Positions 2,908 through 22,576 are shown, numbered from the stretch's first letter. The stretch: DNA of 32,000 bases from Halogeometricum borinquense DSM 11551 (GCF_000172995.2 NC_014729.1:2760001-2792000); one strand, 5' to 3'. The notes: a model not told the origin generated them from the sequence alone. Numbers and translations are program-made.

Positions 2908-4452
2908 TCACCACGGCCTCACATCATGAGCAATGTTGTACATCAACTTAAGTTCCTCAGAGGTCCACTTGTACGTTTCAACGTGGGTGCTTTCTTCATG
3001 GCTGTCGTCCATCCCCTTTGGGACTATTGTACACGCCTCAGCATTCCCAAAGTCTTCCTCTGATAGGTCGTTAATGCAGTCGTTTAATCGATCAATGTTT
3101 TCGATTTTAGGTTTGCCAGTCTCACCCCGTGGAATCCCGTAATCTATGTCCTTGAGTGCACGTTTCGCTTGTTTAGTTGCCTTACTCGCATAATCATCGT
3201 CAGTTGAACCAACTTTTTCTTCGACCACCTTCACAACCTCTCCCGACTTTTTGTCCACGATTAGTTTATCGAATTCCGGATTTCTACTGGAATTCACTTG
3301 GACTCCTTTGACCATGGAGTCGTGGCCGGGAACCACGGCAAGTTCGCCTCTCTCGTCGGAGTCCTCAACGAAGCTTTCGACGAGATTTTTCTCAGGGTGC
3401 GACGAAAGGACCTCTCCTACATCTCCTTCACTGGCCCCAAGATCCTTCGGAGAGTCACCGATTCTCCAGAGGTCCTCGAAAAACTCATCATATTTGTCGT
3501 CGTCTACGGTCTGTTCTAACTCAGCGAGTAACTCGTCACTCAATCCCATCTCTTTGAGCGCCACCAGTGGTGACGCCACAGTATCCCGATCAGGGAGGTT
3601 GTTCCAGCGGGGCATCCGCTGAACGTGCACGTCTGAGTGCTCCATGCGATGCACGCCAATCTTTCCGCCTTGCATCACGCGCTGAGCGGTTTCTTCGGCT
3701 TCCCGTTCCAAGCGTGGGTCAGGATCAATCTCTAACTCGCCTGCTTGGGGAAGCATCGACACCGCGCCACCAGTCTGCTGGCGCACGTGCGCGAGTTCGT
3801 GGGCGAGAATATGCTGACCTTCAGCACTCGATGGATCGTATTCGCCGTGGTTGAACGCGATGTGATTCCCGACGGTAAACGCGCGGGCGTTGATATCCTC
3901 GCAAGCTTTCGCGGCCGATGGACCCGTATGGATGCGTACATCGCCCAGATTGTCGCCCATCCGATCTTCCATCGCACGCTGGATGCTCGTGTCGAGTTGC
4001 TGGCCCGGCGAGGAAATCACGTCTCGTACGGAGTCAGGCACGTTCGTGTCGCCAGCTTTCGACGCCTCGTGGTGCGCGCCGCGACTACGCTGGACAGATT
4101 TAGCGTTCCGGCGTTCGATGTCCTTTGGGACTTCTGCGGGGCGTTCTTTCTGACGCTGGCGGAACGCGCGCATGTCGCGTGGCTTGCCCATCGTATCGAC
4201 GGTCATGCCTTCGTCGGCCCATTCTCGGACTTGGTCTGCGCCGTGTTTCTTGGCCAGTCGCTGAATCTTCGTATCCAGCCCGTCCATGTATATTTCGACG
4301 CCGAATCGTGATTCACACTCTTGGGGCGTTAGCGGACCACCGCCACCACGACTCCGAGTCCGATTCAAGCCTCCCGTCAACTCTTGAATAGACGGAACGG
4401 ACGAGGATCGATCACCCTCACGGGCCCGTTCCTCTGTAGATCGAAATTCCAT
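2908..4452 (-). CDS. DUF4157 (zincin-like HExxH) domain protein with a divergent C-terminal domain; polymorphic-toxin-like effector
   Basis: The stretch LGDVRIHTGPSAAKACEDINARAFTVGNHIAFNHGEYDPSSAEGQHILAHELAHVRQQ matches the DUF4157 signature (VRIHt..A..a...A.AfT.G..I.F....y.P....G..LLAHELtHVvQQ). The C-terminal 230 aa are unrelated to this domain. A TATA-like TTATAT lies about 30 nt upstream. Confidence 0.9.
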   Translation of the reverse strand: MEFRSTEERAREGDRSSSVPSIQELTGGLNRTRSRGGGGPLTPQECESRFGVEIYMDGLDTKIQRLAKKHGADQVREWADEGMTVDTMGKPRDMRAFRQRQKERPAEVPKDIERRNAKSVQRSRGAHHEASKAGDTNVPDSVRDVISSPGQQLDTSIQRAMEDRMGDNLGDVRIHTGPSAAKACEDINARAFTVGNHIAFNHGEYDPSSAEGQHILAHELAHVRQQTGGAVSMLPQAGELEIDPDPRLEREAEETAQRVMQGGKIGVHRMEHSDVHVQRMPRWNNLPDRDTVASPLVALKEMGLSDELLAELEQTVDDDKYDEFFEDLWRIGDSPKDLGASEGDVGEVLSSHPEKNLVESFVEDSDERGELAVVPGHDSMVKGVQVNSSRNPEFDKLIVDKKSGEVVKVVEEKVGSTDDDYASKATKQAKRALKDIDYGIPRGETGKPKIENIDRLNDCINDLSEEDFGNAEACTIVPKGMDDSHEESTHVETYKWTSEELKLMYNIAHDVRPW

Positions 4453-5282: not shown

Positions 5283-5659
5283 CGCGGACGCACCCCCGAA
5301 CGCCCGGTGAACATGTAGATCACAAATAGACCCATTGACCACGTGAGTGGCGACGCGATCATAACCGCACCCCACGACGGAAGGCCCGCATTGACGAGCA
5401 TATCCGCTAAGGCGTATATCAATACGAACGACGAAACGACCTCGTCAGTACCGGAGATCGTCGCGCCGATAAACGAGGTATCGCTCGAGCCACGACTCGC
5501 TGAGTAGTCCTTGAGATCGCCTTTGCTCTGCGCGACGTCGTCTTGAACGCCCGTGTCCGGTTGCATCCCGAGCCAGTCAGCAGTTCCCGAGGCAGTCATG
5601 GCCCCACCGACGCCCGCTACGCAAACGATGAACAGGAGGATCGTCGCCGGGTGTCTCAT
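5279..5659 (-). CDS. Small secreted/membrane-anchored protein (126 aa)
   Basis: The N-terminal signal-like segment is MRHPATILLFIVCVAGVGGAMTASG, and there are C-terminal TM helices plus a GRSGVRPR tail. ATG 5659 overlaps the upstream stop (ATGA), with GGAGGTG 7 nt upstream. The N-terminal extension of the track ORF is Arg-rich junk. Confidence 0.7.
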   Translation of the reverse strand: MRHPATILLFIVCVAGVGGAMTASGTADWLGMQPDTGVQDDVAQSKGDLKDYSASRGSSDTSFIGATISGTDEVVSSFVLIYALADMLVNAGLPSWGAVMIASPLTWSMGLFVIYMFTGRSGVRPR

Positions 5660-8600
5660 CGCCGACCACCTCCGCCAACGGCCATAGCGACTGCGACGAG
5701 TCCAGCAAACACGACCACCCCGCCGCTCGCGGTGTACCACCCGAGCCACCACATGACCGCGGCAACTCCGGTAACCGCAAGGGAGCCGATCGACGAGAGG
5801 CGACCACCGAACAGCATCCCCACGAACAGGAACAGGCAGGTGAGGATCACAGGCGTCCACTTCGGGCCTATCGGGTTCTCGATGACGTACCGCTTGCCGT
5901 CTGCGAGGTCATTCGAACTCTCGATTACTGTGTTCGACGAGTTGTAAGCGTACCACGTGACCTCCCAATCCGTTTCGGTGAGATTACCAGAGACGGTCTT
6001 GTTGAGGCTGAACGTTCCGTATCCTTCCGTGTACGTGCTGTTCATGATCTCGTTGCTTGAGTTGTTCGCCGCGTGGATGATGACGCGGAGCTTGCTCGTG
6101 TTCTGTGTTGGATCATGGTATTGGAAGTGCACGACGCCGTTCGGTTCCTCGTTGCCGTCGGTGAGGTCGATGTACGCGGCAGAGTGTCTGATCGCCTGCG
6201 TGTTGTCCTCGACTTTCCACGATACCTGGCCGACGTTGAGAGTAACAGTTCCCTTTCGCGTCGCCGTGTAGGCACCGAGCACGCGGCTTGAGTTATGTTC
6301 GCCGACGATACGAATCCGGTATCGACGATCCTTCTCAAGGGTTGCCTCGAAGCGTCCCTCGGCTCCGAAGAAGTCTCCGGAGACCGTGACCCACTCAAGG
6401 CCGCTCGACGTGTTCACCGCGCGCTCGATGTAGAGTTTTGCTCGTTCGTTGGATCCGGAGAACTCACCAGTGAGGTCGTTGAGGACGAACTCGGTGTAGT
6501 AGGCCGTCTTGCTGTCGTTAAGGAGATAGACCGAATCTTGCTCATAGAGTGACGTGATGATCACTGTGCGACGGTTGTGACCGTCCGCCTCGAGGACGAG
6601 GACGTAGGTCCGATCGACTGGCAGATCCGTGAGATTGAGCTTGCCGTTCTCTGTCGATCGCTCAAAGACGAGTTCCCCGGAGAAGAACCGTCCAGTGACG
6701 GTGACATTCGTCCCGTTGATCAACTCCTTGGGTTGGTTGACCGGGCGGATGTAGAGCGTCGATGGGACGAGATAGGTCTTATTCGCCGAGGTCGCGTCAG
6801 GGTTGCTCGAATTTCCCGAACCGTACTCGTCGTAGACGCGCACGTACCAGGAGTGATTGCCTCCGCCGACGTCGGTGATTGTCGTTGACGCCGTCCCGTT
6901 CGCCGAGAGCGTGTCAGTCCCAACGACCTCGCTATCGACGACGAACTCGGCTGTGACGGTGTCGCCGTCGAGCTGGAAGTCCCGGTCGGAGACGTTGACC
7001 GAGAGGGTAACGTCCTTGCTCGTCAACTTCGCCCCGTCCTCCGGGCTCATGCTTGAGGAGTTGACCGTCGGCTCGTAGTGGTCGATCTCCCAGGTGAACG
7101 AGTCCGACTCGGAGGTGAGGCCGTACTCGTCGGTCATCTCGACGTGCCACGTGTGGTTGCCGTCCTCGAGCGGGCCGACGTCGAACGTCACCGTCCCGTT
7201 CTTCGTGACGTTCTTGCTGCCGGCGACGGCGCCGTCGAGCACGAGATCGACCTTGACCTCGTCGCCGCTCGGCTCCGCAAAGTCCCGGTCGGAGACGTCG
7301 ATCGAGATCGTCTCGTTCGCGTATCTCGAGGTCGAACCGTCCGGGCTCGCCGAGCTGTTGTCGACGTCCGCCGCGTAGTGGTTGACCGTAAAGTTCCACG
7401 TCGACGACGTCGTCGCCTCCCCATACTCGTCGGTCGTCTCGACGTGCCACGTGTGGTTGCCGTCCTCGAGCTCGGTTACGGTCGTCGAGACGGTCTGGTT
7501 CGACGTGATCGTTTGTGTGTCGACGATCTCACCGTCGAGATAAACGTCGACGGTGACCGAGTCGCCTTGTGGTGTCGAAAAGTCCGAGTCGGAGATCGGG
7601 ACCGAGAGCGTTACATCCTCGTTGTTGGTGTCGCTCCCGCCGCTTGGAGCCGCCTCAGCTCCGTCTATCGACGGCGCTCGAGGTTGGAACCAAACGCCCT
7701 CGTCATGGATCTCGGCGACCGTCCCCGCCGGTTCGTCGTCGAAGACGACCTTCGTCCGCCACATCTCGTAGCTGGTGTTCCCGAGGTCAAGCGTGTAGTT
7801 CCCCGTCGACGAGTAGGTCGAGCTCTCGACGTCCGTCCAAGACGACGTCGAGGAGTCGTAGGCCTGGATTGTGACCGTCGCGCTCGCGTTCTGGAGCGTG
7901 AGGTCCGCCCACGCCTTCTTTGCGTTCCCAACGTCGTGAGGCTGCGAGATGTACGTCCCGCTGGACTTCTCACCGTTGAGATCGATCGCGTCGAAGTATT
8001 GGGCGTTGTGTTTCCACGCCTCCATCATGATACCGCCGGATTTGACCGTCTCATTGGAATCCGTCGCGGAGAGGGACGCGACGACGTTCCCGGCTTCGTC
8101 GTAGACCGTATAGTTCAGCTCGCCGTTCTCACCCCACTCAATTTTTCCACGGACCCACTCGCCCGAGGGAGTCCCAATATCCTTGTCGCGTAGGGTCGTG
8201 GACGTCCCATTGACGACCTTGATGATTCGGATGTCTTGAACGGTGTAGCCGTGCCTGACCCGATAATAGTTATTCGAGTCCTTCCCGAAATTGAACGCCC
8301 ACCCACCGCCAGAACCATCGTGGTAGGTGCGGAACGAGATCGTGTCGCCCGCGGACGGGTACTTCGGTAGCCCACTCGTCGAAACGAGATCCTCATCGAC
8401 GCTTGGGTCCATCTCGACCGCGTAGTCTCCGCTCCAGACCATCGAGGACTGAACGGTGTCGCCTGTCGTTTGCGTGTATTCGGACAGATCACCGTCCTCG
8501 AAGCCGTCTACGGTCTGGTTTAGCTGTCCTTCCAGCGCCACGGACGCCGACGTGCCGGACCCTTCGACGGAGACGTTCGTGAGCTCGGTCGCGTCGTTGA

Positions 8601-8751
8601 AGTCGCTCGCCGTGGTGTGGGAGCTCCCGACCGCAAGATCGCCGCTACTTGCCGCCGCAACCGGCGCGGTGCTCACGACGAGGTAGGTCGCGAACAGCGC
8701 GAACGCGACGATCGCCGGTCGGCGAGCGTCCTCGAGGCGGTCGCGGATCAC
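5656..8751 (-). CDS. Large secreted protein rich in N-glycosylation sequons, with a C-terminal TM anchor; spike/adhesin-like envelope glycoprotein candidate
   Basis: Signal peptide RRPAIVAFALFATYLVVSTAPVAAASS. More than 30 N-x-S/T sequons. LamG/ConA-like N-terminal region, then three 100-aa beta-sandwich-like repeats. C-terminal TM helices end in VGGGGRR. The probable start is GTG 8751 (GTGA overlap with the upstream stop, GGGGGTG 7 nt upstream). The track start is 8805. Confidence 0.9.
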   Translation of the reverse strand: MIRDRLEDARRPAIVAFALFATYLVVSTAPVAAASSGDLAVGSSHTTASDFNDATELTNVSVEGSGTSASVALEGQLNQTVDGFEDGDLSEYTQTTGDTVQSSMVWSGDYAVEMDPSVDEDLVSTSGLPKYPSAGDTISFRTYHDGSGGGWAFNFGKDSNNYYRVRHGYTVQDIRIIKVVNGTSTTLRDKDIGTPSGEWVRGKIEWGENGELNYTVYDEAGNVVASLSATDSNETVKSGGIMMEAWKHNAQYFDAIDLNGEKSSGTYISQPHDVGNAKKAWADLTLQNASATVTIQAYDSSTSSWTDVESSTYSSTGNYTLDLGNTSYEMWRTKVVFDDEPAGTVAEIHDEGVWFQPRAPSIDGAEAAPSGGSDTNNEDVTLSVPISDSDFSTPQGDSVTVDVYLDGEIVDTQTITSNQTVSTTVTELEDGNHTWHVETTDEYGEATTSSTWNFTVNHYAADVDNSSASPDGSTSRYANETISIDVSDRDFAEPSGDEVKVDLVLDGAVAGSKNVTKNGTVTFDVGPLEDGNHTWHVEMTDEYGLTSESDSFTWEIDHYEPTVNSSSMSPEDGAKLTSKDVTLSVNVSDRDFQLDGDTVTAEFVVDSEVVGTDTLSANGTASTTITDVGGGNHSWYVRVYDEYGSGNSSNPDATSANKTYLVPSTLYIRPVNQPKELINGTNVTVTGRFFSGELVFERSTENGKLNLTDLPVDRTYVLVLEADGHNRRTVIITSLYEQDSVYLLNDSKTAYYTEFVLNDLTGEFSGSNERAKLYIERAVNTSSGLEWVTVSGDFFGAEGRFEATLEKDRRYRIRIVGEHNSSRVLGAYTATRKGTVTLNVGQVSWKVEDNTQAIRHSAAYIDLTDGNEEPNGVVHFQYHDPTQNTSKLRVIIHAANNSSNEIMNSTYTEGYGTFSLNKTVSGNLTETDWEVTWYAYNSSNTVIESSNDLADGKRYVIENPIGPKWTPVILTCLFLFVGMLFGGRLSSIGSLAVTGVAAVMWWLGWYTASGGVVVFAGLVAVAMAVGGGGRR
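6766..7659 (-). repeat. Three tandem 300-nt (100-aa) domain repeats inside the glycoprotein gene
   Basis: Repeat landmarks LEDGNHTWHVETTDEYG, LEDGNHTWHVEMTDEYG and VGGGNHSWYVRVYDEYG are spaced exactly 100 aa apart. Each is preceded by (D/S)VSDRDF-like strands. Confidence 0.85.
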
Positions 8752-9041
8752 CGCGGACCACCCCCACGGAACGATCCCTTGCCCGCGACGACGGCGTAAA
8801 GCCACGCCACGATCCCGATCATAAGGAACGTGGGAGCGATCACGAGCCCGACATCGAGCGTGAAACTCAGGTTGTCGTCAAGGCCCTCCTCCTCGATCGC
8901 GCCGTTGTCAGCTTTCTTGACGGCGTCAGCGGTCCCATCAATCGTCGGGATCCCCACGACGACGAAGATACCACCGAGGAACAGGAGGAGCACCACGATC
9001 ACGAACGCGGAGAGATAGGACCCTCGGCTCTGTCGTCGCAT
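8748..9041 (-). CDS. Small 2-TM membrane protein (97 aa)
   Basis: Two hydrophobic helices flank an acidic loop, and the tail is FRGGGPR. ATG 9041 has GGAGGT 8 nt upstream, inside the end of the preceding gene. Confidence 0.75.
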   Translation of the reverse strand: MRRQSRGSYLSAFVIVVLLLFLGGIFVVVGIPTIDGTADAVKKADNGAIEEEGLDDNLSFTLDVGLVIAPTFLMIGIVAWLYAVVAGKGSFRGGGPR

Positions 9042-9044
9042 GAG

Positions 9045-9341
9045 TTAGAACCTCCGTCCAGTTTCGTTGATGGAGCGCCGAAACGAGATCAGTAAGGCTG
9101 CGAGTGCCGCTCCCCACAACGGCCAATACTCCCACAGGAGCCGATACCGTCGAACCGTCTCCTCGCCCCGGCTTGAATCGGCCATGCTGTTGCTCATGTT
9201 GAACAGCATGTGCTGCGGGCCGTCGAGGAACGACCACAACATAACGGCGAGGAACAGCACGCCGAACAGGAACAGGCCGAACCACGCGAAACTCGCATGG
9301 ACGGTGAGGTTCTCGTCGAGTTCACCGAACCAGTGAGTCAC
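9045..9341 (-). CDS. Small 2-TM membrane protein (98 aa)
   Basis: The GTG start overlaps the upstream stop (GTGA), with GGAGGTG 7 nt upstream. There are two hydrophobic helices. Confidence 0.75.
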   Translation of the reverse strand: MTHWFGELDENLTVHASFAWFGLFLFGVLFLAVMLWSFLDGPQHMLFNMSNSMADSSRGEETVRRYRLLWEYWPLWGAALAALLISFRRSINETGRRF

Positions 9342-12300
9342 CGATGGCCACCTCCGTATCCGGCGTTATCGTCGATGCCCGCAAGCGTCTCCTCGAAGGC
9401 AGCGTTGGCAGAATCGAGAGCGTCGTCAACCGCGGTGGAACGCTCAGCGCTCGCAAGCGTAGCGTCGAGCGCCTCTGTGGCGCTCGCGACGGGATTCACC
9501 CAGTCCTCTCCGTAGCCGACGAGCGGAGCGAACTGATCGATGCGCTCTTGCTCGTCGTCGTTGCTGTCGTCACGTCGGCGGCGATCGTCATCATCCCATG
9601 GACCACGAAGAGGGAGTCCCCCGTCTCCACCTCCACTCCCACCGCTGCTCGACGGAGGATACGACGGGCCACCACCACTGCCATCGCCACCCCCATCGCC
9701 GCCCGGCGGAGGATATGACGGACCCGGACCACCGCCACCGTCGTTACTATCACCGCCTGGCGGGGGATATGACGGGTCAGAGCCACCGCTGCCATCACCA
9801 CCCGACGGTGGATATGACGAGTCAGGACTACCGACACCACCGCTTGGTGGCAAATACCCCGAGCCGGGACCACCACTACCCGATCCACCGTAGGGTGGGA
9901 CGTCCGGCTCGCCACCGGTCGGAGCGCCACCGTAACCGCTCCCGACATCCGGATCAGGATAGCCGAGCGGGACGACGGGGGTAGGATCTGACGCGTCCGC
10001 GCCGTCTTTGTAGGCGTACTGTGAGGCGCGTGCACCGTCAGAATCTGAATCTGTGTCAGGAGACCTATCGGGCCCGTTGTAGGTATTCGTATCCGAGTCG
10101 GCAACTCGTGCTGTCGTGTCAGTATCGACATCGACAGCCCGTCCGGAGGGAAGACCCGCCTGACCTCGGGAGTCTGCGAGGAACGCCTGAGCCTCCTGGG
10201 GGAGATCAACATCGGGGATTTCCGGCGACGGTGGGTTCGGGTTTCTCAAGGTCGTGGTGCCGAACTCGTCTTCGAGATCGCCCCACGATCCGTAGTTTTC
10301 GTCCGGGAGCGACAGATCACCCCACGCGTCTTGCCACGAATCGGCCGCCGCTTTCGTCCCACGAGCCCGCCACCGAGTGATAGGATTGAGCGACTTGCTT
10401 TGCTGTTCGGCCATCCGTTCTGCGATCGTGCCGACGTCAACGACGTCTTTCGACCGCCATGTCTTCGGGGCGATCTCGCCCTCGCCGAACAGCCTCATTC
10501 CCCCTTCGATCTTCGCGTTTACCTGACTCTCAACGGGTTGGATTTTGACACCGTCGGCGGATCGGGTCGGGCCGTGGAGGTCGCCTGACCAATCTTTTTT
10601 CCCACGAGCACGGGAGCGGTCGTTTATATCGACCATGTGATCCCACCCATCCTCGGTCTTGACCTCGATTCCCCCTCGGCGCTGCATGGGACGGTCTTCG
10701 TACTTGCTGAGTATGTCGAAAAGTTCCTTCTGAGCCTTATCGGTATCACCAGTGTAGATGTCTATGTCATCGGGCGTACGGGCCTTCCCCGTCTGCATGA
10801 GTTGTGAGACACTTCCTCCGAGCTCCGAGTCGGTTGTTTTCAGCCACTCAGTGACTTCGGGAGCTGCCTCGTCGGGAATCTGTTGCGCGTTTCGAATCCC
10901 CTTCTCGGCCGTGGTGTCGGTGCCACCACTGACACGATCAACAACGGCATCTGTTCGAGAGCGGTCGCCGAGTCGCTCTGCGATTTCACGTCCTGCCTCG
11001 TATCGTTGCAGATCCGTCCCTTCTAGTTGGTTTCGGAGATTTGTGTCCCATATCGATGTCTCGATGGGCGAGGTTGGGGCAACCCCGCTTGAGTCCGGTC
11101 TCTTTGGAGGCCCTTGGAGATCGACATCCGGCGTTCCCACAGTCGGGCGGTGGTTGGTGACCCCGATTCGAGGAGTCGGGTTCGATCCTGGTAGCTTGGT
11201 TGTAAGGCCGCGGTAGGTCGTGACGTCGCCTCCATCTGGGACCTTCGCCGTCTCTACGCGTACCGGCATCTTTGACCCGATACCGACTTTTGTCGTGAGT
11301 CGCCCCACACCGAACCCAGTCAAGAGACCCAAACCAGCACCACCGACGAACTCAACGGGGCTAGATCGCGCTTCATTGACCATTGCTTCTCCCGCTTCCC
11401 GTCCGAACGCGGTCACGGTTTCACCAACAGCACCCGGCCCGTACTCTTCGACCGCATCGGGAGCGTTCTGTGCGACCTCGATACCCGTCTCGGCAGTTGT
11501 GATGTGCTGCGGAACGTTCAGAAAGTCAACTCCTGCCTTAGCAGCACCTTCGAGCAGTTGTTCCGGGACTCCTTCCTGCGAGTCAGGTACTCCGCCTTCA
11601 TCGGTTTCGATCGTCTTTTTGTAGTCATTAATGTCTTTAGCAACGCTCCTTACCTGCTGTTCTTGATCCTCAGAAAGGAGTCCTCCACTCTTCGTGAGGT
11701 CGTCACTGATATTCGTATTGAATTCAGCGTTGTTGACTGCCTCTCCCGTGTTTTCGGCCGAATTCTCTACACTTTCTTCTACTGCATTTCCAACGTTCGA
11801 GGCAGTCTCACCGACCGTATCCACACCACCACTGACAGAGTTTCCTACGTCACTCACGACGTCCGTGGCGGTATCAGTGGCCGAATCAATGCCACTGTCC
11901 ACGGAGTTGCCAACGTCATTCGTGACGTCAGAGGCAGTATCGGTTACTGTATCAACCCCCTCACCGACAGAATCTCCAACGCCGTTCACGACATCGGAGG
12001 CAGTATCGGTTACCGAGTCGATCCCGTCGTCAACAGAGTTTCCCACATCGTTCCCGATGTCTGAGGCGGTATCGGTGACTGAGTCGATACCATCGTCAAC
12101 AGAGCTGCCTACATCGTTTCCAATGTCTGAGGCGGTGTCGGTAACTGTGTCAACACCGGACTCCACCGCACTCCCAACATCGTCGAAGAATCCGCCACTG
12201 TCGCTGGACGATGAACTCGAGGAGGTTGGCGAGTCCAAGGACGAACCAGAGTGGTCTCGCCCCGCCTCTTGCGATGACCCTGACGAGCCGCCGATCCCGA

Positions 12301-12523
12301 CCGAGTCGGTCACGGAGTCAGCAGCGTCCGAGACGGTGTCGGTGATGCCGTCCCAGAACCCGCCACCGCCGCCCGAGTCGTTCGACGAGGACGAAGAGTG
12401 GGACGATCCCGAGGACCCCGACGAGCCGCTGCTCGAGGAACTACTCGACTGAGAGCCCGACGAACTACCGGAATCACCCGATTCGGATCCGGAATAGCCG
12501 GGGATGTTGTCTAAGAATCCCAT
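9338..12523 (-). CDS. Giant (1061 aa) low-complexity/repeat protein with poly-Ser/Gly tracts, 22-aa tandem repeats, a Gly-rich hydrophobic segment, a globular middle region and a Pro/Gly-rich SYPPxGG region
   Basis: A single uninterrupted ORF. The ATG directly abuts the upstream stop (TAGATG). Composition is extremely acidic, S/G/D/T-rich at the N-terminus. See the repeat features and findings. Confidence 0.9.
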   Translation of the reverse strand: MGFLDNIPGYSGSESGDSGSSSGSQSSSSSSSGSSGSSGSSHSSSSSNDSGGGGGFWDGITDTVSDAADSVTDSVGIGGSSGSSQEAGRDHSGSSLDSPTSSSSSSSDSGGFFDDVGSAVESGVDTVTDTASDIGNDVGSSVDDGIDSVTDTASDIGNDVGNSVDDGIDSVTDTASDVVNGVGDSVGEGVDTVTDTASDVTNDVGNSVDSGIDSATDTATDVVSDVGNSVSGGVDTVGETASNVGNAVEESVENSAENTGEAVNNAEFNTNISDDLTKSGGLLSEDQEQQVRSVAKDINDYKKTIETDEGGVPDSQEGVPEQLLEGAAKAGVDFLNVPQHITTAETGIEVAQNAPDAVEEYGPGAVGETVTAFGREAGEAMVNEARSSPVEFVGGAGLGLLTGFGVGRLTTKVGIGSKMPVRVETAKVPDGGDVTTYRGLTTKLPGSNPTPRIGVTNHRPTVGTPDVDLQGPPKRPDSSGVAPTSPIETSIWDTNLRNQLEGTDLQRYEAGREIAERLGDRSRTDAVVDRVSGGTDTTAEKGIRNAQQIPDEAAPEVTEWLKTTDSELGGSVSQLMQTGKARTPDDIDIYTGDTDKAQKELFDILSKYEDRPMQRRGGIEVKTEDGWDHMVDINDRSRARGKKDWSGDLHGPTRSADGVKIQPVESQVNAKIEGGMRLFGEGEIAPKTWRSKDVVDVGTIAERMAEQQSKSLNPITRWRARGTKAAADSWQDAWGDLSLPDENYGSWGDLEDEFGTTTLRNPNPPSPEIPDVDLPQEAQAFLADSRGQAGLPSGRAVDVDTDTTARVADSDTNTYNGPDRSPDTDSDSDGARASQYAYKDGADASDPTPVVPLGYPDPDVGSGYGGAPTGGEPDVPPYGGSGSGGPGSGYLPPSGGVGSPDSSYPPSGGDGSGGSDPSYPPPGGDSNDGGGGPGPSYPPPGGDGGGDGSGGGPSYPPSSSGGSGGGDGGLPLRGPWDDDDRRRRDDSNDDEQERIDQFAPLVGYGEDWVNPVASATEALDATLASAERSTAVDDALDSANAAFEETLAGIDDNAGYGGGHR
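9614..9961 (-). repeat. Pro/Gly-rich degenerate repeats (SYPPxGG-type motif, about 5 copies) near the C-terminus of the giant protein
   Basis: Protein stretch PPYGGSGSGGPGSGYLPPSGGVGSPDSSYPPSGGDGSGGSDPSYPPPGGDSNDGGGGPGPSYPPPGGDGGGDGSGGGPSYPPSSSGG. Confidence 0.8.
11750..12187 (-). repeat. About 6.5 tandem copies of a 66-nt (22-aa = 2 x 11-aa) repeat in the giant protein gene
   Basis: The units are DSVTDTASDIGNDVGSSVDDGI / DSVTDTASDIGNDVGNSVDDGI / DSVTDTASDVVNGVGDSVGEGV / DTVTDTASDVTNDVGNSVDSGI / DSATDTATDVVSDVGNSVSGGV / DTVGETASNVGNAVEESVENSA. The DNA copies are visibly similar but not identical. Confidence 0.9.
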
Positions 12524-13528
12524 CTACGGGAGCACCCCCGACGGTGGCATAATCATACCCGCGCCGCCCATCGGGATCGAGATCCCACCACCACTGCCAG
12601 CCGCAGTGAACCCGATGTACGCGACAATCGCACCAAGCATGAACGCGCCCATGAGCAGTCCCGCTTGCCCGAGCGGACCGAGCGACGCGAAGCCCTGTTG
12701 ACCTTTCTTCGCATTCTCCGCAACGCGGTGGAACTGTTGCGGCTTGACGTTGAACGGCGCGGCGTGGATCGTATCACGGAGGTCCACGACCTTCCGAGTC
12801 GGGAGCATCGTCTCCCACTCGTCGATCACCGTCTTGCCGCCGTCCGTGAGCGGATCATCCTCGTCGTCTCCGACGCGGTCGCGGGCGGCATCAACACCGT
12901 CACCGAGCCGGTCCCGAGCCGATCCGACGCTCTCACCGAGCTTATCGCGGGCGCGACGACCTTCATCCGCGAGGACCTGCGTGCCGTTCACGAGGCTATC
13001 TGCGATCTGGGTTCCGGCCGCAGCGATCAGTTCCGGACCGTCCTCTTGGGCTTTCCACGTCGCATAGTCAATCGTCGAGAGGTCCTCGGCGTAGTGCTGC
13101 ATCTTGATCCGTGCCTGCCGTCCGACCTCACCGGAGGCCGGTTCGGCAAGCGCGCCGAGGCCGTCGTAGGCGATTGCGAGCGCAGTCCCGCCATACCAAC
13201 CGCCCGGATCTCCGCCGACGCCGCTCGCGTCGTAGAACTCACGACCGTCGGCTGTCGGGACCCAGTACCCGTTATTCTCGCCGTCGTAGGTCGCCGGCTT
13301 GAGCGACCACAGGCCGTCCTCGTCCTTGATCGCCATGAGCGTCTTGCCCATAATCCGTGATCCACGGCCGATCAGTCGCCGCCCGAGCTTGTCTCGGACA
13401 CTGCCGACCGGGATATTGTGACCGCCCATGATCAGGAATATCGAGAGAACCGAGATCACCCCGACGATCGGCATGACCTTGTCCCACAAAATCTGCAAGA
13501 ACAGATTGAGCCACGGCATGAGCGCCAT
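12524..13528 (-). CDS. Membrane protein (334 aa) with an N-terminal TM, a soluble middle and Gly-rich C-terminal TM segments
   Basis: N-terminal helix VMPIVGVISVLSIFLIMGG and C-terminal helices LGQAGLLMGAFMLGAIVAYIGFTAAGSGGG. There is an internal 11-aa periodic stretch ARDKLGESVGS/ARDRLGDGVDA/ARDRVGDDEDD. GGAGGTG lies 8 nt upstream of the ATG. Confidence 0.85.
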   Translation of the reverse strand: MALMPWLNLFLQILWDKVMPIVGVISVLSIFLIMGGHNIPVGSVRDKLGRRLIGRGSRIMGKTLMAIKDEDGLWSLKPATYDGENNGYWVPTADGREFYDASGVGGDPGGWYGGTALAIAYDGLGALAEPASGEVGRQARIKMQHYAEDLSTIDYATWKAQEDGPELIAAAGTQIADSLVNGTQVLADEGRRARDKLGESVGSARDRLGDGVDAARDRVGDDEDDPLTDGGKTVIDEWETMLPTRKVVDLRDTIHAAPFNVKPQQFHRVAENAKKGQQGFASLGPLGQAGLLMGAFMLGAIVAYIGFTAAGSGGGISIPMGGAGMIMPPSGVLP

Positions 13529-14520: not shown

Positions 14521-14997
14521 TCACCTCCGTCCACGTCGCCCGCCGCCACCGAACCCGCCGACGAGCCCCAGAATGAGGGCTGCGACGAGGACGATCACGG
14601 CGACCGCGCCGAGGACGAACGCGCTCCCGATCGTGCCGATCGAGTTGCGCGCCATGTCCGGCTTGTGGTCGAAAGCGTAGTCGATCTCCGCGGTCGCACC
14701 GTCTGTTGTACTCGTCGTACTATACCATGCTACCGAGTGATTTCCGGGATACCACTCATAGTCGGTTCCCTCAGTGAGGTTCGTACCCGAACTGTTCGTG
14801 ATCGTCTCGTTTTCATAGTATTTCTCGCCGTACGTCTTGTCAACCGACGTTGCGTTGCCCACGTCTATCGTGATCGACTCGTTCGCGACGCTCGATGTCG
14901 CCATAGCCGGCATCGTGCCGAAAATCGAGGACACAACGTAGATCCCGACGATCAGCATGACCGCCACGGTGACCATCTGGTTAAACGAGTCTTCCAC
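14521..14997 (-). CDS. 2-TM protein with a sequon-rich ectodomain; paralog of the C-terminal half of 15047..15625
   Basis: It shares FNQMVTVAVMLIVGIYV... and ...AVIVLVAALILGLVGGFGGGGRRGRR with its neighbour. The loop has NES, NAT, NET, NSS, NLT and NHS sequons. The track start GTG 15006 lies inside the SD GGAGGTGA, so GTG 14997 (5 nt after it) is preferred. Confidence 0.8.
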   Translation of the reverse strand: MEDSFNQMVTVAVMLIVGIYVVSSIFGTMPAMATSSVANESITIDVGNATSVDKTYGEKYYENETITNSSGTNLTEGTDYEWYPGNHSVAWYSTTSTTDGATAEIDYAFDHKPDMARNSIGTIGSAFVLGAVAVIVLVAALILGLVGGFGGGGRRGRR

Positions 14998-15046
14998 GTG
15001 TCTCACCTCCGTTCATAAGAGTGGTTTTAGGGTGTGAGATGGGTGT

Positions 15047-15625
15047 TTAGCGGCGACCCCGTCCGCGACCACCGAAGCCGCCGACGAGCCCGAGGATCAC
15101 CGAGGCGACGAGGACGATAATCGCGACAGACCCAAGAGTGAACGCGTTACCCGTCGTTGACTTGACGGTGTTTGTTGAGTTCGCGAGTTCGGGGTTCGAC
15201 GGCGTCGGCATCGTCGAACTGATCTGAGCGAACACGTAGATCCCGACGATCAGCGTGACCGCGGCCGACACCATGCGAGTGAATGTCGCTTCAATCGCCG
15301 CGTAGACCTGGGAATCCTCACCGAGGCGCTCGCCGATACCGAGTTCCTCGTCAACCTCATCCCACTGCCGTCCGGCGTAGAGATCGGCCATTTCCTGCTG
15401 AATCTCCGCGGCCGTGCGGACGTCCTCGATCCCACCCTTGAGGCGCTCGCGAACGTCGTTCACGCCGTTGATGATTGCCGCCTGTCCGATAGCGACGAGA
15501 CCCGCACGCTGTTCGGAGCTGAGTCCTTCTGTCTCGATCTCAGCGTCGAGAACGTGGTCGTCGAACTGTTCCGCGTCGTTGCTGCGCCGGTCGTATCCGG
15601 CGTGGGGGGTTGCATGAACCTCCAT
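15047..15625 (-). CDS. First gene of the long operon: an acidic N-terminal soluble domain plus two TM helices, ending GLVGGFGGRGRGRR
   Basis: The ATG start sits at the edge of a 114-nt divergent intergenic region. TM helices are TFTRMVSAAVTLIVGIYVFAQI and GSVAIIVLVASVILGLVGG. Confidence 0.85.
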   Translation of the reverse strand: MEVHATPHAGYDRRSNDAEQFDDHVLDAEIETEGLSSEQRAGLVAIGQAAIINGVNDVRERLKGGIEDVRTAAEIQQEMADLYAGRQWDEVDEELGIGERLGEDSQVYAAIEATFTRMVSAAVTLIVGIYVFAQISSTMPTPSNPELANSTNTVKSTTGNAFTLGSVAIIVLVASVILGLVGGFGGRGRGRR

Positions 15626-16647: not shown

Positions 16648-17547
16648 ATGGCGAAAGCTCAAATCACACATCCCACGGCCGACCGTATCCCCGAACCCGT
16701 CCGGAACTCTCCAATCCTCCGCAAGGTGATCTACCGGCGGGTTCACGAATGGAACCAGAACTTCATGGGCGTCGTCGTCGGCGAGACGGGCAAGGGCAAG
16801 TCCTACGCCGCTCTCCGTCTCGCCGAGGCTCTCTACCCCGATTTCGACGTCGACAACGTCGCATTCACTCTCGAGGAGTTTTTCGGACTCGTCGAGGAGG
16901 ACCAACCCGAGGGATCGGTGATCGTCCTCGACGAGGCCGGCGTCGGCGCCTCACATCGCGACTGGTACGACGACGCCCACCAGCACCTCAACTACGTGTT
17001 GCAAACGTGGCGCCACCAGAACCGGATCGCGATCCTCACGCTTCCCGAGCTCGACAAGCTCGATCCCGTCGCTCGGTCCCGGCTCCACGGCTATTTCGAG
17101 ATGATCCGGATCAACCACGACGAGGAGTGGTCGCGGGCTCAGTTCAAGAGGATCAAGACGAACCCGAGGACCGGCGAGAACCACTACCCGTACCCTCGAC
17201 TCCGGTGGGACGGGACCAAACGGAAATATAAAGGACTCACCTTCGGCCTCCCGTCCGTGGATCTGATCGGTGCTTATGAAGAACGTAAAGAGAAGTTCAC
17301 AGACTCCCTAAACAAGACGGCAAAGGAGGCCGTTGCCCCTGACGATGATGACGAGGAGGAGTATAGCCCGCGTGAGGCCGTTGACGAGATCGAGTCACGC
17401 GACGCCGTTGACGCCTACCTTGAGGACTCGCCCGGTGGACAGTACATCAACCGGAACCTCCTCAAGGTGGACTACGGGCTTACAGAGAACGAGAGTAAGA
17501 CCGTCAAGAGTCTGCTAAAGCGGAGGTTCGACCTTGACGTCATGTGA
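16648..17547 (+). CDS. P-loop NTPase (299 aa), a small virus/plasmid-type morphogenesis or packaging-like ATPase candidate
   Basis: Walker A is GVVVGETGKGKSYAA and Walker B is SVIVLDEAGV. GAGGT lies 9 nt upstream of the ATG. The C-terminal tail is acidic. Confidence 0.9.
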   Translation: MAKAQITHPTADRIPEPVRNSPILRKVIYRRVHEWNQNFMGVVVGETGKGKSYAALRLAEALYPDFDVDNVAFTLEEFFGLVEEDQPEGSVIVLDEAGVGASHRDWYDDAHQHLNYVLQTWRHQNRIAILTLPELDKLDPVARSRLHGYFEMIRINHDEEWSRAQFKRIKTNPRTGENHYPYPRLRWDGTKRKYKGLTFGLPSVDLIGAYEERKEKFTDSLNKTAKEAVAPDDDDEEEYSPREAVDEIESRDAVDAYLEDSPGGQYINRNLLKVDYGLTENESKTVKSLLKRRFDLDVM

Positions 17548-17712: not shown

Positions 17713-18891
17713 ATGAGTTCGCACTTAAAAATAGAAGACGTTCACGACGCGATTGAGAACGGCGCTCGGACGAAGAATGAAATCGCCGAGGTCGTTGGTA
17801 AATCGCCCTCGAATACGAACCGCAAACTCAAGGCGTGGGTCGAGAACGAGGACGTCCGCCTGGATCGGCACTGGAACCACGGCGACGGTGGCGGCTACGT
17901 CTACACGATTCCCGCCAAGGACGAGATCGACGATGCGGAGGACCTGCCGATCCTCGGCTCTCGCAACTACGACTGGGACCGGTTCGTTCCCGACACCGAG
18001 GACGTTCCCGTGTACCGGCAGGCCGAGCGCGAACTCGACGAGATCAAGGCCGTCCTCAAGGCGCGCGGCGCGACCGGGCAACTCCCACGGTTCCAGATCT
18101 CCGGTCCGACTGGGTGCGGCAAGACGACCCTCGCCGAGTATCTTGCTGCTGACCGCGGCGCGCCCATGATCACGATTCAATGCAACTACGCGCTCCGCGG
18201 CGCGGAACTCCTCGGAACGCCTCAGATCGTCGGTGGTGACGTCATGTGGGTGGACGGTCCGCTCACTCGTGCCCTCCTCGCCTCACGAGAACGCGAGGTC
18301 CTTGTCCTGATCGACGAGGTCACACGCGCAACCGCGCGGTCGAAAGGAACGCTGTTTCCGGCGCTCGATCACCGCGCCGAGGTCAAGATCAAGCCCCGCG
18401 GCAATGAGTTGATCTCCGGCGTAGCCGAGGACATGATCACAGTCGCCACGATGAACGAAGGGCAGGATTACGAAACGGAGGAGCTTGACGCCGCTGAGGA
18501 GCGTCGTCTCGGACTCAAGTGGGAGCTTCCTTACCTCGGGCAGCACTCGCCCGACCTCGAGGCCGAACTCGTTGCGACCAAGACACCGATGCCGAGTACC
18601 GACGCCCGCGTTCTCGTCGATGCCGCCAACGTCGTACGCGACGCCGCCGAGGACGAGTCGGAGCCCGCGATCACCCGCGGTGTCCCGACTCCTGCGGTGA
18701 TCTCTTGGGCACAAACTGCCTACGCGTTCGCTGAGCGTGGGCTCAACGATCCTGTCGGTCGTGCCATGCAGTCCGCGGTCGTCAAGCCCGTCTACGACGA
18801 GGTCGCGGGTGACGTCGCCGGTAAGATACACTCAGCGTTGAAGCGAGCCGACCATGAGCCCGACCTCGGCCCCGAAGAGGTGACGGCATGA
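17713..18891 (+). CDS. MoxR/CbbQ/GvpN-like AAA+ (AAA_5) ATPase with an N-terminal wHTH-like domain
   Basis: Walker A is ISGPTGCGKTTLAEYL and Walker B is VLVLIDEVTRA. The N-terminal TKNEIAEVVGKSPSNTNRKLKAWVEN is HTH-like. GGAGGT lies 9 nt upstream of the ATG. Confidence 0.9.
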   Translation: MSSHLKIEDVHDAIENGARTKNEIAEVVGKSPSNTNRKLKAWVENEDVRLDRHWNHGDGGGYVYTIPAKDEIDDAEDLPILGSRNYDWDRFVPDTEDVPVYRQAERELDEIKAVLKARGATGQLPRFQISGPTGCGKTTLAEYLAADRGAPMITIQCNYALRGAELLGTPQIVGGDVMWVDGPLTRALLASREREVLVLIDEVTRATARSKGTLFPALDHRAEVKIKPRGNELISGVAEDMITVATMNEGQDYETEELDAAEERRLGLKWELPYLGQHSPDLEAELVATKTPMPSTDARVLVDAANVVRDAAEDESEPAITRGVPTPAVISWAQTAYAFAERGLNDPVGRAMQSAVVKPVYDEVAGDVAGKIHSALKRADHEPDLGPEEVTA

Positions 18892-19139: not shown

Positions 19140-20348
19140 ATGAGTGAGATCGGCGACGTGATCGCGGTGATCCCGCAGCACTACGTTAACGAGGCCGACG
19201 TCTCGTTTACCACCGAATCCCTCGACGTCTCTGGTGTCCTCGTCGATGTCCTCGAGCCCGAGGAGAATGACGGCCGCCGCACTCTGGTTGTTGACAACGA
19301 CGGATCCGAGTACCATCTCGCCGCCCGCGAGCGCATGGCCGCCGACGGACTCACCGAGTGGACACCCGGGCCCGTGCGGACGAGCTCGAGCGTCGAACTC
19401 GGTGAACTCCGCTCAATCGACGTCGATCCACCTGACGAGGATGAGGGTGCTGCCGTCATTGATGACGTCGAGGCGCTCGACAGTGAGGATCTCTCTAGCG
19501 AAATCGGCGAGATAGGAGGGATCCACCGCGGTGGCAAAGCGACCTCAAGGCTCGCTGATCGGCGGAGCGCCCGGAACCACCGCGTCGATAACTACTCTGG
19601 GAGCGCGCCCGCGAGCGACGTTCGCGACGAGCTCCGAGCCGGTGGGACCGCAGCGGCGGTCGTGCGCGAATTCAAACGCCTTGTCGCCGAGGAAATCCGT
19701 GTCACTGATCGCGTCGGTGAGCGGCCGGATGTCCGCAACGTGATCCGGTTCCTTGCGGGTGACGACACCGTTTTCGACGATCTGTGGTCCCGCACCGAGA
19801 CGAACGACACTGGCGACCGCGTCGTCGGAATCGCACTCGACATGAGTGGCAGTATGGGCAACGCCGAGCATGATGCGAAAGCTGCGGTCGGCGCGCTCGC
19901 CCTTGCCGCGAGTGCCGTCGATGACGATGTCGTGATCACCGCGTTCCCCCAGGGAAAGCGTAAGAGTGCGCTCGTCACCGGTCCCTACGAGTCGTGGCGG
20001 TGGCAGCACCTCGATGCCACGGAACCCGGCGGTGGGACGCCCATGCTTCCGGCACTCCGCGACGTTACCCGACTTATGCGTCCACTCAAGGGTCGTGAGC
20101 GCGTGCTGTTTGCGATCACCGATGGCCGGCCGAGTCGCGCCGATAGGGTCGCCGAGCTCGTCGAAGATCTCCGAACCTACGGGACAGCGGTCGTTGGGTT
20201 TGGGTTCGGTCGCGTGAACGAGTCCACGCTCGAAGAGCTATTTGGGAGAGACGGCTACCGGCACGTTGACGTTGAGGATCTCCCGCGGGCGCTCGTCGGT
20301 GCGTACCTGGATCAACTCGAACTCGACGCGACGCTCGACAGGCAGTGA
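19140..20348 (+). CDS. von Willebrand factor A (VWA) domain protein with a complete MIDAS motif, CobT/NorD-like partner of the AAA+ ATPase
   Basis: MIDAS elements are GIALDMSGSMG (DxSxS), GGGTP (Thr) and AITDGRP (Asp). The N-terminal region is about 200 aa and acidic. Confidence 0.9.
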   Translation: MSEIGDVIAVIPQHYVNEADVSFTTESLDVSGVLVDVLEPEENDGRRTLVVDNDGSEYHLAARERMAADGLTEWTPGPVRTSSSVELGELRSIDVDPPDEDEGAAVIDDVEALDSEDLSSEIGEIGGIHRGGKATSRLADRRSARNHRVDNYSGSAPASDVRDELRAGGTAAAVVREFKRLVAEEIRVTDRVGERPDVRNVIRFLAGDDTVFDDLWSRTETNDTGDRVVGIALDMSGSMGNAEHDAKAAVGALALAASAVDDDVVITAFPQGKRKSALVTGPYESWRWQHLDATEPGGGTPMLPALRDVTRLMRPLKGRERVLFAITDGRPSRADRVAELVEDLRTYGTAVVGFGFGRVNESTLEELFGRDGYRHVDVEDLPRALVGAYLDQLELDATLDRQ

Positions 20349-20920: not shown

Positions 20921-21348
20921 TGTTCTGTGAACAGGATCGGCTTCTCCGACACTCCGTAGGCGACGAGCACCTCGCCGAGTTCGAGGAGTACGACGACGAC
21001 ACACCCCGTGACGACGAGCGGCGTGAACGCGTTGGCCGTCATCGAGGCGACGATCAACGCCAACACTGCCATCAATCCCGCTGCGGCGAGGCCGTTCTTA
21101 GCGACCCGCTCGAGATCCTCCGAAGTCGGCTCGTCCGGAAGGATCTGGGCTGCGAATCGGCTCGCGAGGATGTCGGCGACGCGGTCAGTCACTCGAGGTG
21201 GGGCAAGGAACTCACGCGGTTCCCGAGCGCCGCTCAGGAGACGGGAAACGACCCACCCGAGTGAGAGACCGAACGTGGCGATCAACACGTAGGCAACGGG
21301 ACCGGAGGGCGCTGCCACCGCGCCAGCCGTAGTCGGTACGCTCGGCAC
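20917..21348 (-). CDS. Membrane protein (143 aa, about 4 TM)
   Basis: The GTG start has GAGGTG 9 nt upstream. Hydrophobic helices are separated by a charged loop. Confidence 0.7.
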   Translation of the reverse strand: MPSVPTTAGAVAAPSGPVAYVLIATFGLSLGWVVSRLLSGAREPREFLAPPRVTDRVADILASRFAAQILPDEPTSEDLERVAKNGLAAAGLMAVLALIVASMTANAFTPLVVTGCVVVVLLELGEVLVAYGVSEKPILFTEQ

Positions 21349-21560
21349 TATGGGGCACCTCGGTTCGGGAGTAGTCGGAGAGTCATACGGTCGTGTAGTG
21401 GCTGCAACTACGCCCTAACCGTCTCCTCGCGGTTTCATAAACCACGGCGGATAACCTTATTCGAATAAGATTTGGTTTAAACAGTTTACTCCCGCTATCT
21501 GTTGTGTTGAATCTCAACATCTGCCAAACTCTTATCAATTCACATCGCAGAGAACCGCAT

Positions 21561-21743
21561 ATGCCGAAGATATTCAGAAACAACATGAATTGGCATCATG
21601 ATGGTCCTGGTGGTTGCAAAGTTGTTGATCCAGCAGGTGTCGATAATCACCTTGTTCACAACAAGGACTGGGGTGAAGCACTCGGTCTAATAGAGGATGA
21701 CGCTGGTGATCGGTGCGGCCAATGCAATTGGCCTGACGGATAG
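21561..21743 (+). CDS. Possible small Cys-containing protein (60 aa)
   Basis: The ATG lies within the track ORF 21504..21743, and there is a C...CxxC pattern (CKVV...CGQC). It sits in an AT-rich region. Support is weak. Confidence 0.3.
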   Translation: MPKIFRNNMNWHHDGPGGCKVVDPAGVDNHLVHNKDWGEALGLIEDDAGDRCGQCNWPDG

Positions 21744-21924
21744 TTTGGTTAGCGCTAAGTAGTCGTTGGCAATTAACGTCGAGCTATTCTGGTTTCATCG
21801 CAACTTTCTCTGCAAGATGTACTGAACAGTCTCCTCGATATAGACGAAGCTGTAGGAATACGATTCTTTCCGTGTTCAGCAGCTATCCTGTCATTTGAAA
21901 TATTTTTGTCCTATACAGATATAT

Positions 21925-22263
21925 ATGGGAAATAAAGACCTTAGAACTGCATTCAAGCAGTCGATCAATTGCATGGATGATGATGTTGATTGGGTAGCTA
22001 CGACAAACCTAGACGATCCGTCATCTGAAATGACCGGTTACGAGTCCTTCGATGTTGTACTCCATTTGAATACGACCGATACGCAGATTGCACGCGAGAT
22101 TGTGGGAGATGCTGGTGAGAAGATTAAAGACCGAGACGACTGGGACGGCAAGTTACTGTTTGAAACTATCTGGGAGGGGTCCCCAGAAATCGAGATGAGA
22201 GTACGGGTGTACTTGACGTCTGAGGCAAGACAGAACGGGAGTGGCGCTGAGTTATATTTCTAG
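21925..22263 (+). CDS. Hypothetical acidic protein (112 aa)
   Basis: ATG 21925 is preceded by an AT-rich TATA-like AAATATTT about 25 nt upstream. The track ORF starts at TTG 21895. Confidence 0.45.
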   Translation: MGNKDLRTAFKQSINCMDDDVDWVATTNLDDPSSEMTGYESFDVVLHLNTTDTQIAREIVGDAGEKIKDRDDWDGKLLFETIWEGSPEIEMRVRVYLTSEARQNGSGAELYF

Positions 22264-22488: not shown

Positions 22489-22576
22489 AAGCGAACCCCC
22501 TGTATCACCCACACTTGCACCTCGATCACGTCGGTGTCCGGTGCCTCTAAGTGAAATGTTGTTATAAGAAATCTTC

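Follow-up and report, generated by a model that had tools for sequence, protein, structure and literature searches.

We describe a 1061-residue protein encoded in a 32,000-nucleotide stretch of the Halogeometricum borinquense DSM 11551 chromosome (GCF_000172995.2 NC_014729.1:2760001-2792000), referred to below as the window, in which all positions are counted. The protein (Hbor_29060 family), here called the giant, is encoded in the structural gene block of a provirus akin to LSV-48N, a lemon-shaped virus of Haloferax, and its central part is a folded domain with a conserved catalytic motif. Since the scaffold is retained in sister proteins and the central module differs between them, we put at about even the chance that the giant is a particle-associated carrier whose enzymatic cargo can be swapped. 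On that reading it would be a virion protein with an enzyme built into it, or a polymorphic effector carrier, from a virus group first described in 2024-2026.

The central domain (Table 1) was modelled by AlphaFold from an alignment of 23 sequences sharing 20-73% identity (alignment A3), with a predicted local distance difference test (pLDDT) of 90 and a predicted template modelling score (pTM) of 0.85; a single-sequence model of residues 421-800 was uninformative (pLDDT 40). It consists of a small beta-hairpin subdomain (residues 421-462), helical linkers, a nucleotidyltransferase core and a helical C-lobe. G570, S571, D586, D588, K671 and R690 are invariant in the alignment, R582, D632, K692, D693 and D696 are nearly so, and the R690-x-K692-D693 motif lies just downstream of the core. 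The order of elements in the modelled core, alpha-beta-[G570 S571]-alpha-beta(D586, D588)-alpha-beta-beta(D632), is the pol-beta nucleotidyltransferase signature, and the motif hG[GS]-x(9-15)-Dh[DE]h with a third carboxylate on a later strand is satisfied by G570-S571, D586-I-D588 and D632. A nucleotidyltransferase fold is therefore very probable from model and motif together, and activity is predicted. A first-pass annotation of the window had listed this part as a globular region of roughly 350 residues; the region is indeed folded, and in place of an anonymous scaffold it appears to be a nucleotidyltransferase-fold domain with conserved catalytic residues.

With somewhat less assurance, though still on the favourable side, we place the domain in an AbiEii/MenT-like subfamily. 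PADLOC AbiEii profiles match it twice and colinearly, over the GS/DxD region (E 7.8e-4) and over the K671-D693 region (E 0.021), and members of A3 match eight different AbiEii models, the commonest of them being matched by 5 of the 23. The top Foldseek matches in the PDB were a CCA-adding enzyme, CutA and TglT/MenT3 (5hc9, 6ywp, 6j7n), at E 0.34-1.0 and TM-scores below 0.3 for a multi-domain query. The residues essential in MenT3 are D80, K189 and D211 (PMC7450476); the 22 residues from K671 to D693 equal the distance from K189 to D211, in a comparison by spacing. In BFVD Foldseek gave one significant match, the unnamed entry A0A5P9U643_2 (E 1.1e-6). No cognate antitoxin of the AbiEi/COG5340 or MenA type lies adjacent, the flanking genes encoding a 334-residue protein with two transmembrane segments and small transmembrane proteins that have no Pfam match, and because the antitoxin gene is absent we do not regard the domain as a toxin-antitoxin member. 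Genome maps of methanogen spindle viruses label one gene 'tRNA nucleotidyltransferase' (PMC9796341), which may be the same domain.

The exchange of modules is seen in the family of the giant. A HMMER scan of 1.84 billion representative proteins with residues 243-860 as query returned only 43 proteins: eight haloarchaeal ones with the central domain, five of which also have the conserved core that precedes it, about 15 that share the core only, and about 20 that share the central domain only. The last are mostly Lys-rich and from non-halophilic sources, one of them on a contig of 28% guanine-cytosine (GC) content. Throughout the family the order is a variable N-terminus, the core (in haloarchaea), a Gly-rich hydrophobic segment, the central domain, a Pro/Tyr-rich spacer, a charged cluster and an aromatic-x-NP[IV]A motif. 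What lies in the middle is either the nucleotidyltransferase or, in many relatives, an unrelated domain of about 250 residues with invariant S...ExE...G..F. This ExE domain (alignment A4, which also served as a control) had no Pfam or PDB match and zero PADLOC matches; its pattern YH[GA]T ... ExE-hhh-P-G-x-F may resemble that of ADP-ribosyltransferases. Compared with its counterpart in L006, the nearest other element, the giant is 76% identical over the enzyme domain and 65% over the C-terminus, against 14-21% over the first 262 residues. The L006 protein has an unrelated N-terminus with neither the repeat array nor its periodicity, though the neighbouring proteins are 77-85% identical. The N-terminal region is replaced in relatives, and the array is hypervariable between related elements.

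The contigs that carry these proteins are small and also encode integrases, primases or ATPases, and all family members whose surroundings were examined are on small mobile-element-like contigs. Neither the whole giant nor its central domain gave a real tblastn match in 50,697 phage records, nor did a Lys-rich homologue. IMG/VR, GTDB representative genomes and JGI metagenomes were scanned by sequence pattern, and none yielded a relative. Among plasmids tblastn found one match only, a 150-residue core fragment in unannotated DNA of Halarchaeum sp. CBA1220 plasmid pCBA1220-05 (L001). This copy of residues 243-392 (positions 382-918, 45% identical) represents a gene missed in annotation or else a piece of one, judging from the plasmid sequence; the plasmid is 14.6 kb long and has a P4-type primase. 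A word-indexed protein search gave eight hits with the full giant, swamped by low complexity, and one hit with A3; with residues 420-800 it missed even the identical P0001, so its negatives for the giant are untrustworthy. Searches of the giant in Pfam, NCBIfam and PDB sequences, and of the central domain in these and in PHROGs, yielded no family above threshold, in agreement with the first-pass view that no characterised family has this combination, and no paper on the family or its domain was found in the literature.

The genomic setting is that of a provirus. When all 37 LSV-48N proteins were compared with the window by tblastn, nine had significant matches at 23-67% identity, among them the ATPase (42%), the spike-like CDS0012 (33-36%), CDS0019, a regulator (67%) and two integrases (one at 61%). 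The gene order agrees with that of LSV-48N and of three metagenomic relatives (L002, L003 and L006): two-transmembrane capsid candidates, a small protein, a protein of about 190 residues, a transmembrane protein of about 300 residues, the giant, two small transmembrane proteins and an immunoglobulin (Ig)-like spike. From the nine homologues, the same gene order and the capsid-like pair, we identify at sequence level an LSV-48N-like lemon-shaped provirus with the giant in its structural block, and the mobile-element setting supposed earlier is thereby given a name. The family of LSV-48N-type viruses has recently been proposed as Almyrocitroviridae (PMC13612827).

The LSV-48N gene at the position of the giant is CDS0015 (WWZ16973), which is P_03685 of the published LSV-48N supernatant proteome, a 679-residue protein counted from Met146 and among those detected in greatest abundance in particle preparations. 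P_03685 was found with 52 peptides, 81% coverage and an intensity-based absolute quantification (iBAQ) value of 1.37e8 (PMC12714723, Dataset EV2). The adjacent 290-residue membrane protein has a nearly equimolar value (1.40e8), and P_03685 lies 30-200 times above the ATPase (4.5e6) and the integrase (7e5) (PMC12714723). The supernatant proteome supports a structural role of CDS0015, and the near-equal values hint that it may form a complex with the membrane protein encoded upstream, in a 1:1 ratio. Apart from the syntenic position, CDS0015 and the giant share a similar size (824 residues for CDS0015, 679 in the proteome), a Ser-rich N-terminus, a Gly/Ala-rich hydrophobic segment, a Pro-rich stretch, a Trp and a basic cluster near the C-terminus, and a short FLxDxRGQ motif ('AFLSDTRGQ'). 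They differ in that CDS0015 has no 11-residue repeat array and is Arg-rich and strongly charged, whereas the giant is purely acidic.

A number of observations weigh against the carrier reading. Packaging of the giant is something we infer from this positional counterpart, and the LSV-48N preparation was a precipitated supernatant which also contained the ATPase and the integrase. No significant similarity between the giant and CDS0015 was found by pairwise BLASTP or by hhalign of the core; a profile of the hydrophobic segment gave a weak match to CDS0015 (7.3 bits, a score reached by 2 of 500 shuffles), and a profile of the C-terminal module gave none. Neither a nucleotidyltransferase nor an ExE domain was detectable in CDS0015. 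On the enzymatic side, no Foldseek match of the central domain in the PDB was significant (best E 0.34), Pfam PF08843 did not match the domain, and the nucleotidyltransferase assignment is built from motif, model topology and sub-threshold profile matches. Finally, some non-halophilic homologues are on small elements without recognisable capsid genes, and for this reason the family need not always be structural.

The extent of the ORF (open reading frame) given in the first-pass annotation was confirmed, including the long start. The ORF is the longest of its region, and its ATG at 12523 directly adjoins the stop codon of the upstream 334-residue ORF. NCBI records use shorter starts (839-945 residues). 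We prefer the long start because the N-terminus is kept in strain variants and distant homologues: 'MGFLDN...' is retained in strain variant P0057, all indels of this region being in-frame, and the distant homologue P0006 begins with the matching 'MGWWDN...'. The ORF, whose disruption in relatives would have spoken against the first-pass reading, is undisrupted in at least four H. borinquense strains. In every H. borinquense record the giant and its neighbour are chromosomal and annotated as 'hypothetical protein' (Hbor_29060 in DSM 11551). Among the strains, residues 391-613 have zero substitutions, while the N-terminus and the spacer accumulate changes. Indels in four variants are limited to the Ser and Gly tracts, and the copy number of the 22-residue repeat is constant in them, so the length polymorphism for which a strain comparison had been suggested was not seen.

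All modules listed earlier were recovered, and their order stands with one correction: a conserved, non-repetitive core of about 125 residues (residues 263-388) separates the repeats from the Gly-rich segment. The N-terminal tract (41% Ser, 21% Gly) is presumably disordered. The core carries the motifs DDLTxGG..SE... and PE.LLEGAA.AGVD.LNVPQH..AETG.EVAQN.P. The hydrophobic segment reaches a maximum Kyte-Doolittle value of 1.2, which is below that of a classical transmembrane helix, and neither a true transmembrane helix nor a signal peptide was found in the giant. The spacer is 39% Gly and 21% Pro, with four SYPP motifs, one YLPP and one VPPY in the region first described as SYPPxGG-rich, and spacers rich in YPP or PPY recur throughout the family, even in Lys-rich non-halophilic members. 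In the C-terminal module a Trp and an acidic/basic cluster (WDDDDRRRRDD...; residues 976-991, WDDDDRRRRDDSNDDE) are followed by Y/W-x-x-[WF]-x-NP[IV]A and an Ala-rich tail.

The repeat array comprises about 6.6 copies of 22 residues, each of two 11-residue halves as first proposed. Its self-identity is 0.58 at lag 22 and 0.54 at lag 44, and at the DNA level Tandem Repeats Finder reports a 66-nucleotide period with 4.8 copies and 74% matches. The hydrophobic moment has a single sharp peak at 98 degrees (period 3.67, i.e. 11/3) with an amplitude of 0.46, compared with 0.145 +/- 0.017 in shuffled sequences (about 18 standard deviations). No beta-type peak is present in the spectrum, and in the repeat regions of six homologues, two of which have only 4-5% Gly, the maximum falls at 98-102 degrees. 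Since the 11/3 periodicity is kept in Gly-poor homologues and the beta peak is missing, we read the array as an amphipathic alpha-helix about 150 residues long. The periodicity pointed out earlier is thus real and helical, and the beta-solenoid alternative raised with it is disfavoured by the 98-degree periodicity and by the 98-100 degree peaks of Gly-poor homologues. The array is Pro-free, its polar face is entirely acidic, and its apolar face of Val, Ile, Ala and Gly is narrow. A 1074-residue bacterial protein (P0005) has some 15 nearly identical copies of the 11-mer 'WNSVTDTASDT', which closely resembles the 'SVTDTASD' half-unit of the giant. The copies are preceded by an N-terminal region containing the HExxH-like motif 'EEAGHY' and followed by a C-terminal 'HAHHILYKKG' domain; by its sequence this looks like a similar repeat spacer used in an apparent bacterial polymorphic toxin.

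Among the other explanations, a tape-measure protein or assembly scaffold, whose long helical N-terminal region would set the dimension of a particle or tail with the enzyme as an accessory, is in our view improbable. Phage tape measure proteins may carry lysozyme or peptidase domains, and two of them (P0007 and P0008) also have 11-mer repeats; a PHROG search gave nine matches over the repeat region, seven of them to tape-measure families (best E 5e-11), and the hydrophobic Gly-rich segment and the position in a structural block fit as well. The PHROG alignments, however, centre on residues 40-320 or so, and apart from one gapped alignment reaching residue 584 none enters the enzyme domain or the C-terminus, so that these matches, like those to apolipoproteins, are probably driven by periodicity or composition. 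No portal, terminase, tail tube or chaperone gene was found in the window. A ruler is moreover expected to be conserved, whereas here the array is the most variable part and is missing both from the LSV-48N counterpart and from the L006 protein, which weakens the tape-measure role suggested in the first-pass annotation. A membrane-remodelling or egress factor is less probable still. The 11-mer helices and the hydrophobic segment would then bend or coat the host membrane at release, with the central domain as a regulator; amphipathic helices with 11/3 periodicity are typically seen in proteins that bind lipid surfaces, the genes alongside code for membrane proteins, and sub-threshold Pfam matches to apolipoprotein, ApoLp-III and phasin were obtained with the giant (PF01442, 16.9 bits, E 0.005, cut-off 90 bits) and with homologues, more strongly in P0006 (E 2e-10). 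The wholly acidic polar face and the narrow apolar face speak against it, the array is dispensable in close relatives, and the invariant catalytic residues would be left without an explanation.

The enzyme might instead act inside the cell, as a toxin or defence module of the provirus for abortive infection, superinfection exclusion or host addiction and not as a particle component. We rate this as improbable as the tape measure. MenT and AbiEii enzymes are growth-arresting toxins (PMC7450476, PMC10435456), in keeping with the AbiEii profile matches, and chronic spindle-shaped viruses encode toxins that kill uninfected cells (PMC8628083). An antitoxin gene is not found beside the giant, though, the flanking genes being membrane or structural ones, and the domain is buried in a 1061-residue protein within a co-directional structural operon. 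Its spacer and C-terminal motif, which a stand-alone toxin would not need, are conserved in very distant members, and in LSV-48N the protein at the corresponding position is plentiful in the extracellular fraction. As for a halomucin-like secreted surface or matrix protein of the host, unrelated to any mobile element, the size and the Ser-rich and Pro/Gly-rich tracts do recall such proteins. This reading was rejected, and is effectively refuted, because a signal peptide is absent and the gene lies inside the provirus; nor is there a transmembrane anchor, the family members examined are on mobile-element-like contigs and a folded enzyme domain is present.

Under the carrier reading, the giant, having neither a signal peptide nor a true transmembrane helix, would presumably be a cytoplasmic product that is then incorporated into particles. 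The absence of a signal peptide would place it on the inside of the particle, from where it could pass into the next host along with the genome. Its N-terminal half, the disordered Ser/Gly tract and the helical array of about 150 residues, would be free to vary or to be replaced. This half would most likely run along a lipid or hydrophobic-capsid surface, or pair with the 11-mers of the 334-residue neighbour, and the Gly-rich hydrophobic segment that closes the conserved core could insert in membrane or capsid. The active-looking AbiEii/MenT-like module may, by analogy with MenT, add nucleotides to the 3' end of an RNA such as tRNA, or nucleotidylate another host target. The Pro/Tyr-rich spacer would be extended, and the C-terminal charged cluster with NP[IV]A is plausibly an incorporation or docking signal, so that the hydrophobic segment and the C-terminal motif would be retained for incorporation and the enzymatic cargo delivered to, or acting on, the host cell.

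Coordinates of the giant, of its modules and of neighbouring genes are given in Table 1.

Table 1. Positions of the giant, its modules and neighbouring genes in the window.
Feature	Position	Strand	Remarks
Giant, whole ORF, 1061 aa	9338..12523	minus	ATG start
Giant, aa 1-112, Ser/Gly-rich, presumably disordered N-terminus	12188..12523	minus	conserved 'GGGFW.G..DTV' motif
Giant, aa 113-262, amphipathic 11/3 helical repeats	11738..12187	minus	about 6.6 x 22 aa (2 x 11)
Giant, aa 263-388, conserved core	11360..11737	minus	common to haloarchaeal family members
Giant, aa 389-410, Gly-rich hydrophobic segment	11294..11359	minus	PVEFVGGAGLGLLTGFGVGRLT; present family-wide
Giant, aa 415-760, folded central domain	10244..11281	minus	AlphaFold pLDDT 90, pTM 0.85
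Giant, aa 551-685, predicted pol-beta-type nucleotidyltransferase core	10469..10873	minus	alignment and model
Giant, aa 861-975, Pro/Gly/Ser/Tyr-rich spacer	9599..9943	minus	SYPPxGG motifs
Giant, aa 976-1061, conserved C-terminal module	9341..9598	minus	
334-aa protein, transmembrane segments at N- and C-terminus	12524..13528	minus	upstream of giant; three 11-aa ARDxLGxxVxx units
Two paralogous two-transmembrane proteins (161 and 192 aa)	14521..15006, 15047..15625	minus	candidate major capsid proteins
Two small membrane proteins (98 and 97 aa)	8748..9341	minus	between giant and spike-like gene; order kept in relatives and LSV-48N
1049-aa Ig-like membrane-anchored spike/tail-like protein	5656..8805	minus	CDS0012 homologue
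DnaA/Zot-like ATPase	16648..17547	plus	42% identical to LSV-48N CDS0023; divergent from structural block

The three units noticed earlier in the 334-residue neighbour are at its residues 193-225 (positions 12854-12952) and read ARDKLGESVGS / ARDRLGDGVDA / ARDRVGDDEDD. Compared with the 77%-identical L006 homologue there is an exact one-unit (11-residue) indel, a repeat-number polymorphism in the neighbour and not in the giant. The 161- and 192-residue paralogues each have two hydrophobic helices, one N-proximal and one C-terminal, together with a GGFGG-RGRR tail, and by sequence are good candidates for spindle capsid proteins; the 161-residue protein matches LSV-48N CDS0019 and relatives that have faint or weak precomputed hits to Pfam UCP028589 (PF27730). 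CDS0012 (904 residues), the homologue of the spike-like protein, is the most abundant LSV-48N protein in particle preparations (PMC12714723).

Between the DnaA/Zot-like ATPase and a short integrase the provirus has a MoxR-type AAA_5 ATPase (17713-18891, plus strand; E 1e-16, with a CbbQ_C tail) and a VWA-domain protein (19140-20348, plus strand), a pair without counterpart in LSV-48N. The two-tailed spindle virus ATV has a MoxR and VWA pair too, which is implicated in tail development. At the end of the structural operon, in a patch of low GC (45-53%), the minus-strand gene 2908-4452 encodes a 514-residue protein in which an eCIS_core/DUF4157 domain is strongly matched (E 1.5e-31) and Peptidase_M91, an 'effector' family, weakly. 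As eCIS_core/DUF4157 marks cargo toxins of contractile injection systems, this may be a second effector-like gene of the provirus. The stretch 21000-27000 is also of lower GC (49-55%) and contains a short integrase-like ORF (22577-23182), a matrixin-type metallopeptidase (24683-25921) and small ORFs; it probably represents cargo or else a further insertion. Another integrase, the second, lies at 27903-28931 and is 61% identical to LSV-48N CDS0030. No tRNA genes were found within the 32,000 nucleotides, and the left end of the provirus lies outside the window.

Lemon-shaped archaeal viruses are abundant, their proteins are nearly all 'hypothetical', and in the LSV-48N group tentative roles have been given only to the spike-like protein and the capsid candidates. 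For the giant of the structural block there is now an anatomy that can be tested, with a variable helical arm, a hydrophobic segment, a nucleotidyltransferase in which the catalytic residues are kept, and a C-terminal motif. If packaged, it would be the first candidate for a virion-delivered enzymatic effector of the LSV-48N-type group, and it could bear on host reprogramming by these viruses, LSV-48N having been published to suppress host immunity genes. The Lys-rich members on small elements from AT-rich metagenomes offer a new marker for unrecognised archaeal mobile elements. A wider reading, which we consider rather doubtful and put forward tentatively, is that an undescribed virion carrier is common to lemon-shaped viruses of archaea and to related viruses and mobile elements, in haloarchaea as well as in AT-rich non-halophiles. 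This carrier would package exchangeable toxin-type enzymes, AbiEii/MenT-like here and with the ExE motif in sister elements, and release them into the cell at a new infection. Were this true, it would be an archaeal-virus counterpart of polymorphic toxin and effector delivery, with a defence-type toxin fold on the side of the virus.

The giant may finally be compared with known systems. With the AbiEii/MenT (DUF1814) toxins it shares hG[GS]-x(14)-DxD with a third Asp, putatively also the downstream invariant Lys and R-x-K-D, and a bilobed model, alpha/beta and helical, for which TglT/MenT3 is among the top fold matches. Unlike them, its domain is embedded in a large structural-block protein in an archaeal virus context, has no antitoxin gene, is preceded by a family-specific beta-hairpin subdomain and is not matched by PF08843. 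Tailed-phage tape measure proteins are similarly large, with 11-residue repeats, hydrophobic or Gly-rich segments and sometimes an embedded enzyme, but no tailed-virus genes accompany the giant, its repeats are the least conserved part and the similarity is confined to low-information periodic sequence. The 11-mer helices of apolipoproteins, apolipophorin-III and phasins have the same 11/3 hydrophobic periodicity, yet every score falls short of its family cut-off (for the giant, 17 bits where 90 are required), and the Lys/Arg interfacial residues of class A lipid-binding helices are absent from its acidic-faced array. Virion-borne polymorphic effectors are known as MuF-toxin fusions of phages and as cargo toxins with DUF4157 of extracellular contractile injection systems (eCIS). 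Like the giant, they combine a constant carrier with exchangeable enzymatic or toxin domains and are encoded in particle-gene clusters, and the H. borinquense provirus also encodes a DUF4157/eCIS_core protein of its own; they differ in that the variable domain of the giant is central and not C-terminal, that it has no sequence relationship to MuF and that its delivery is putative.

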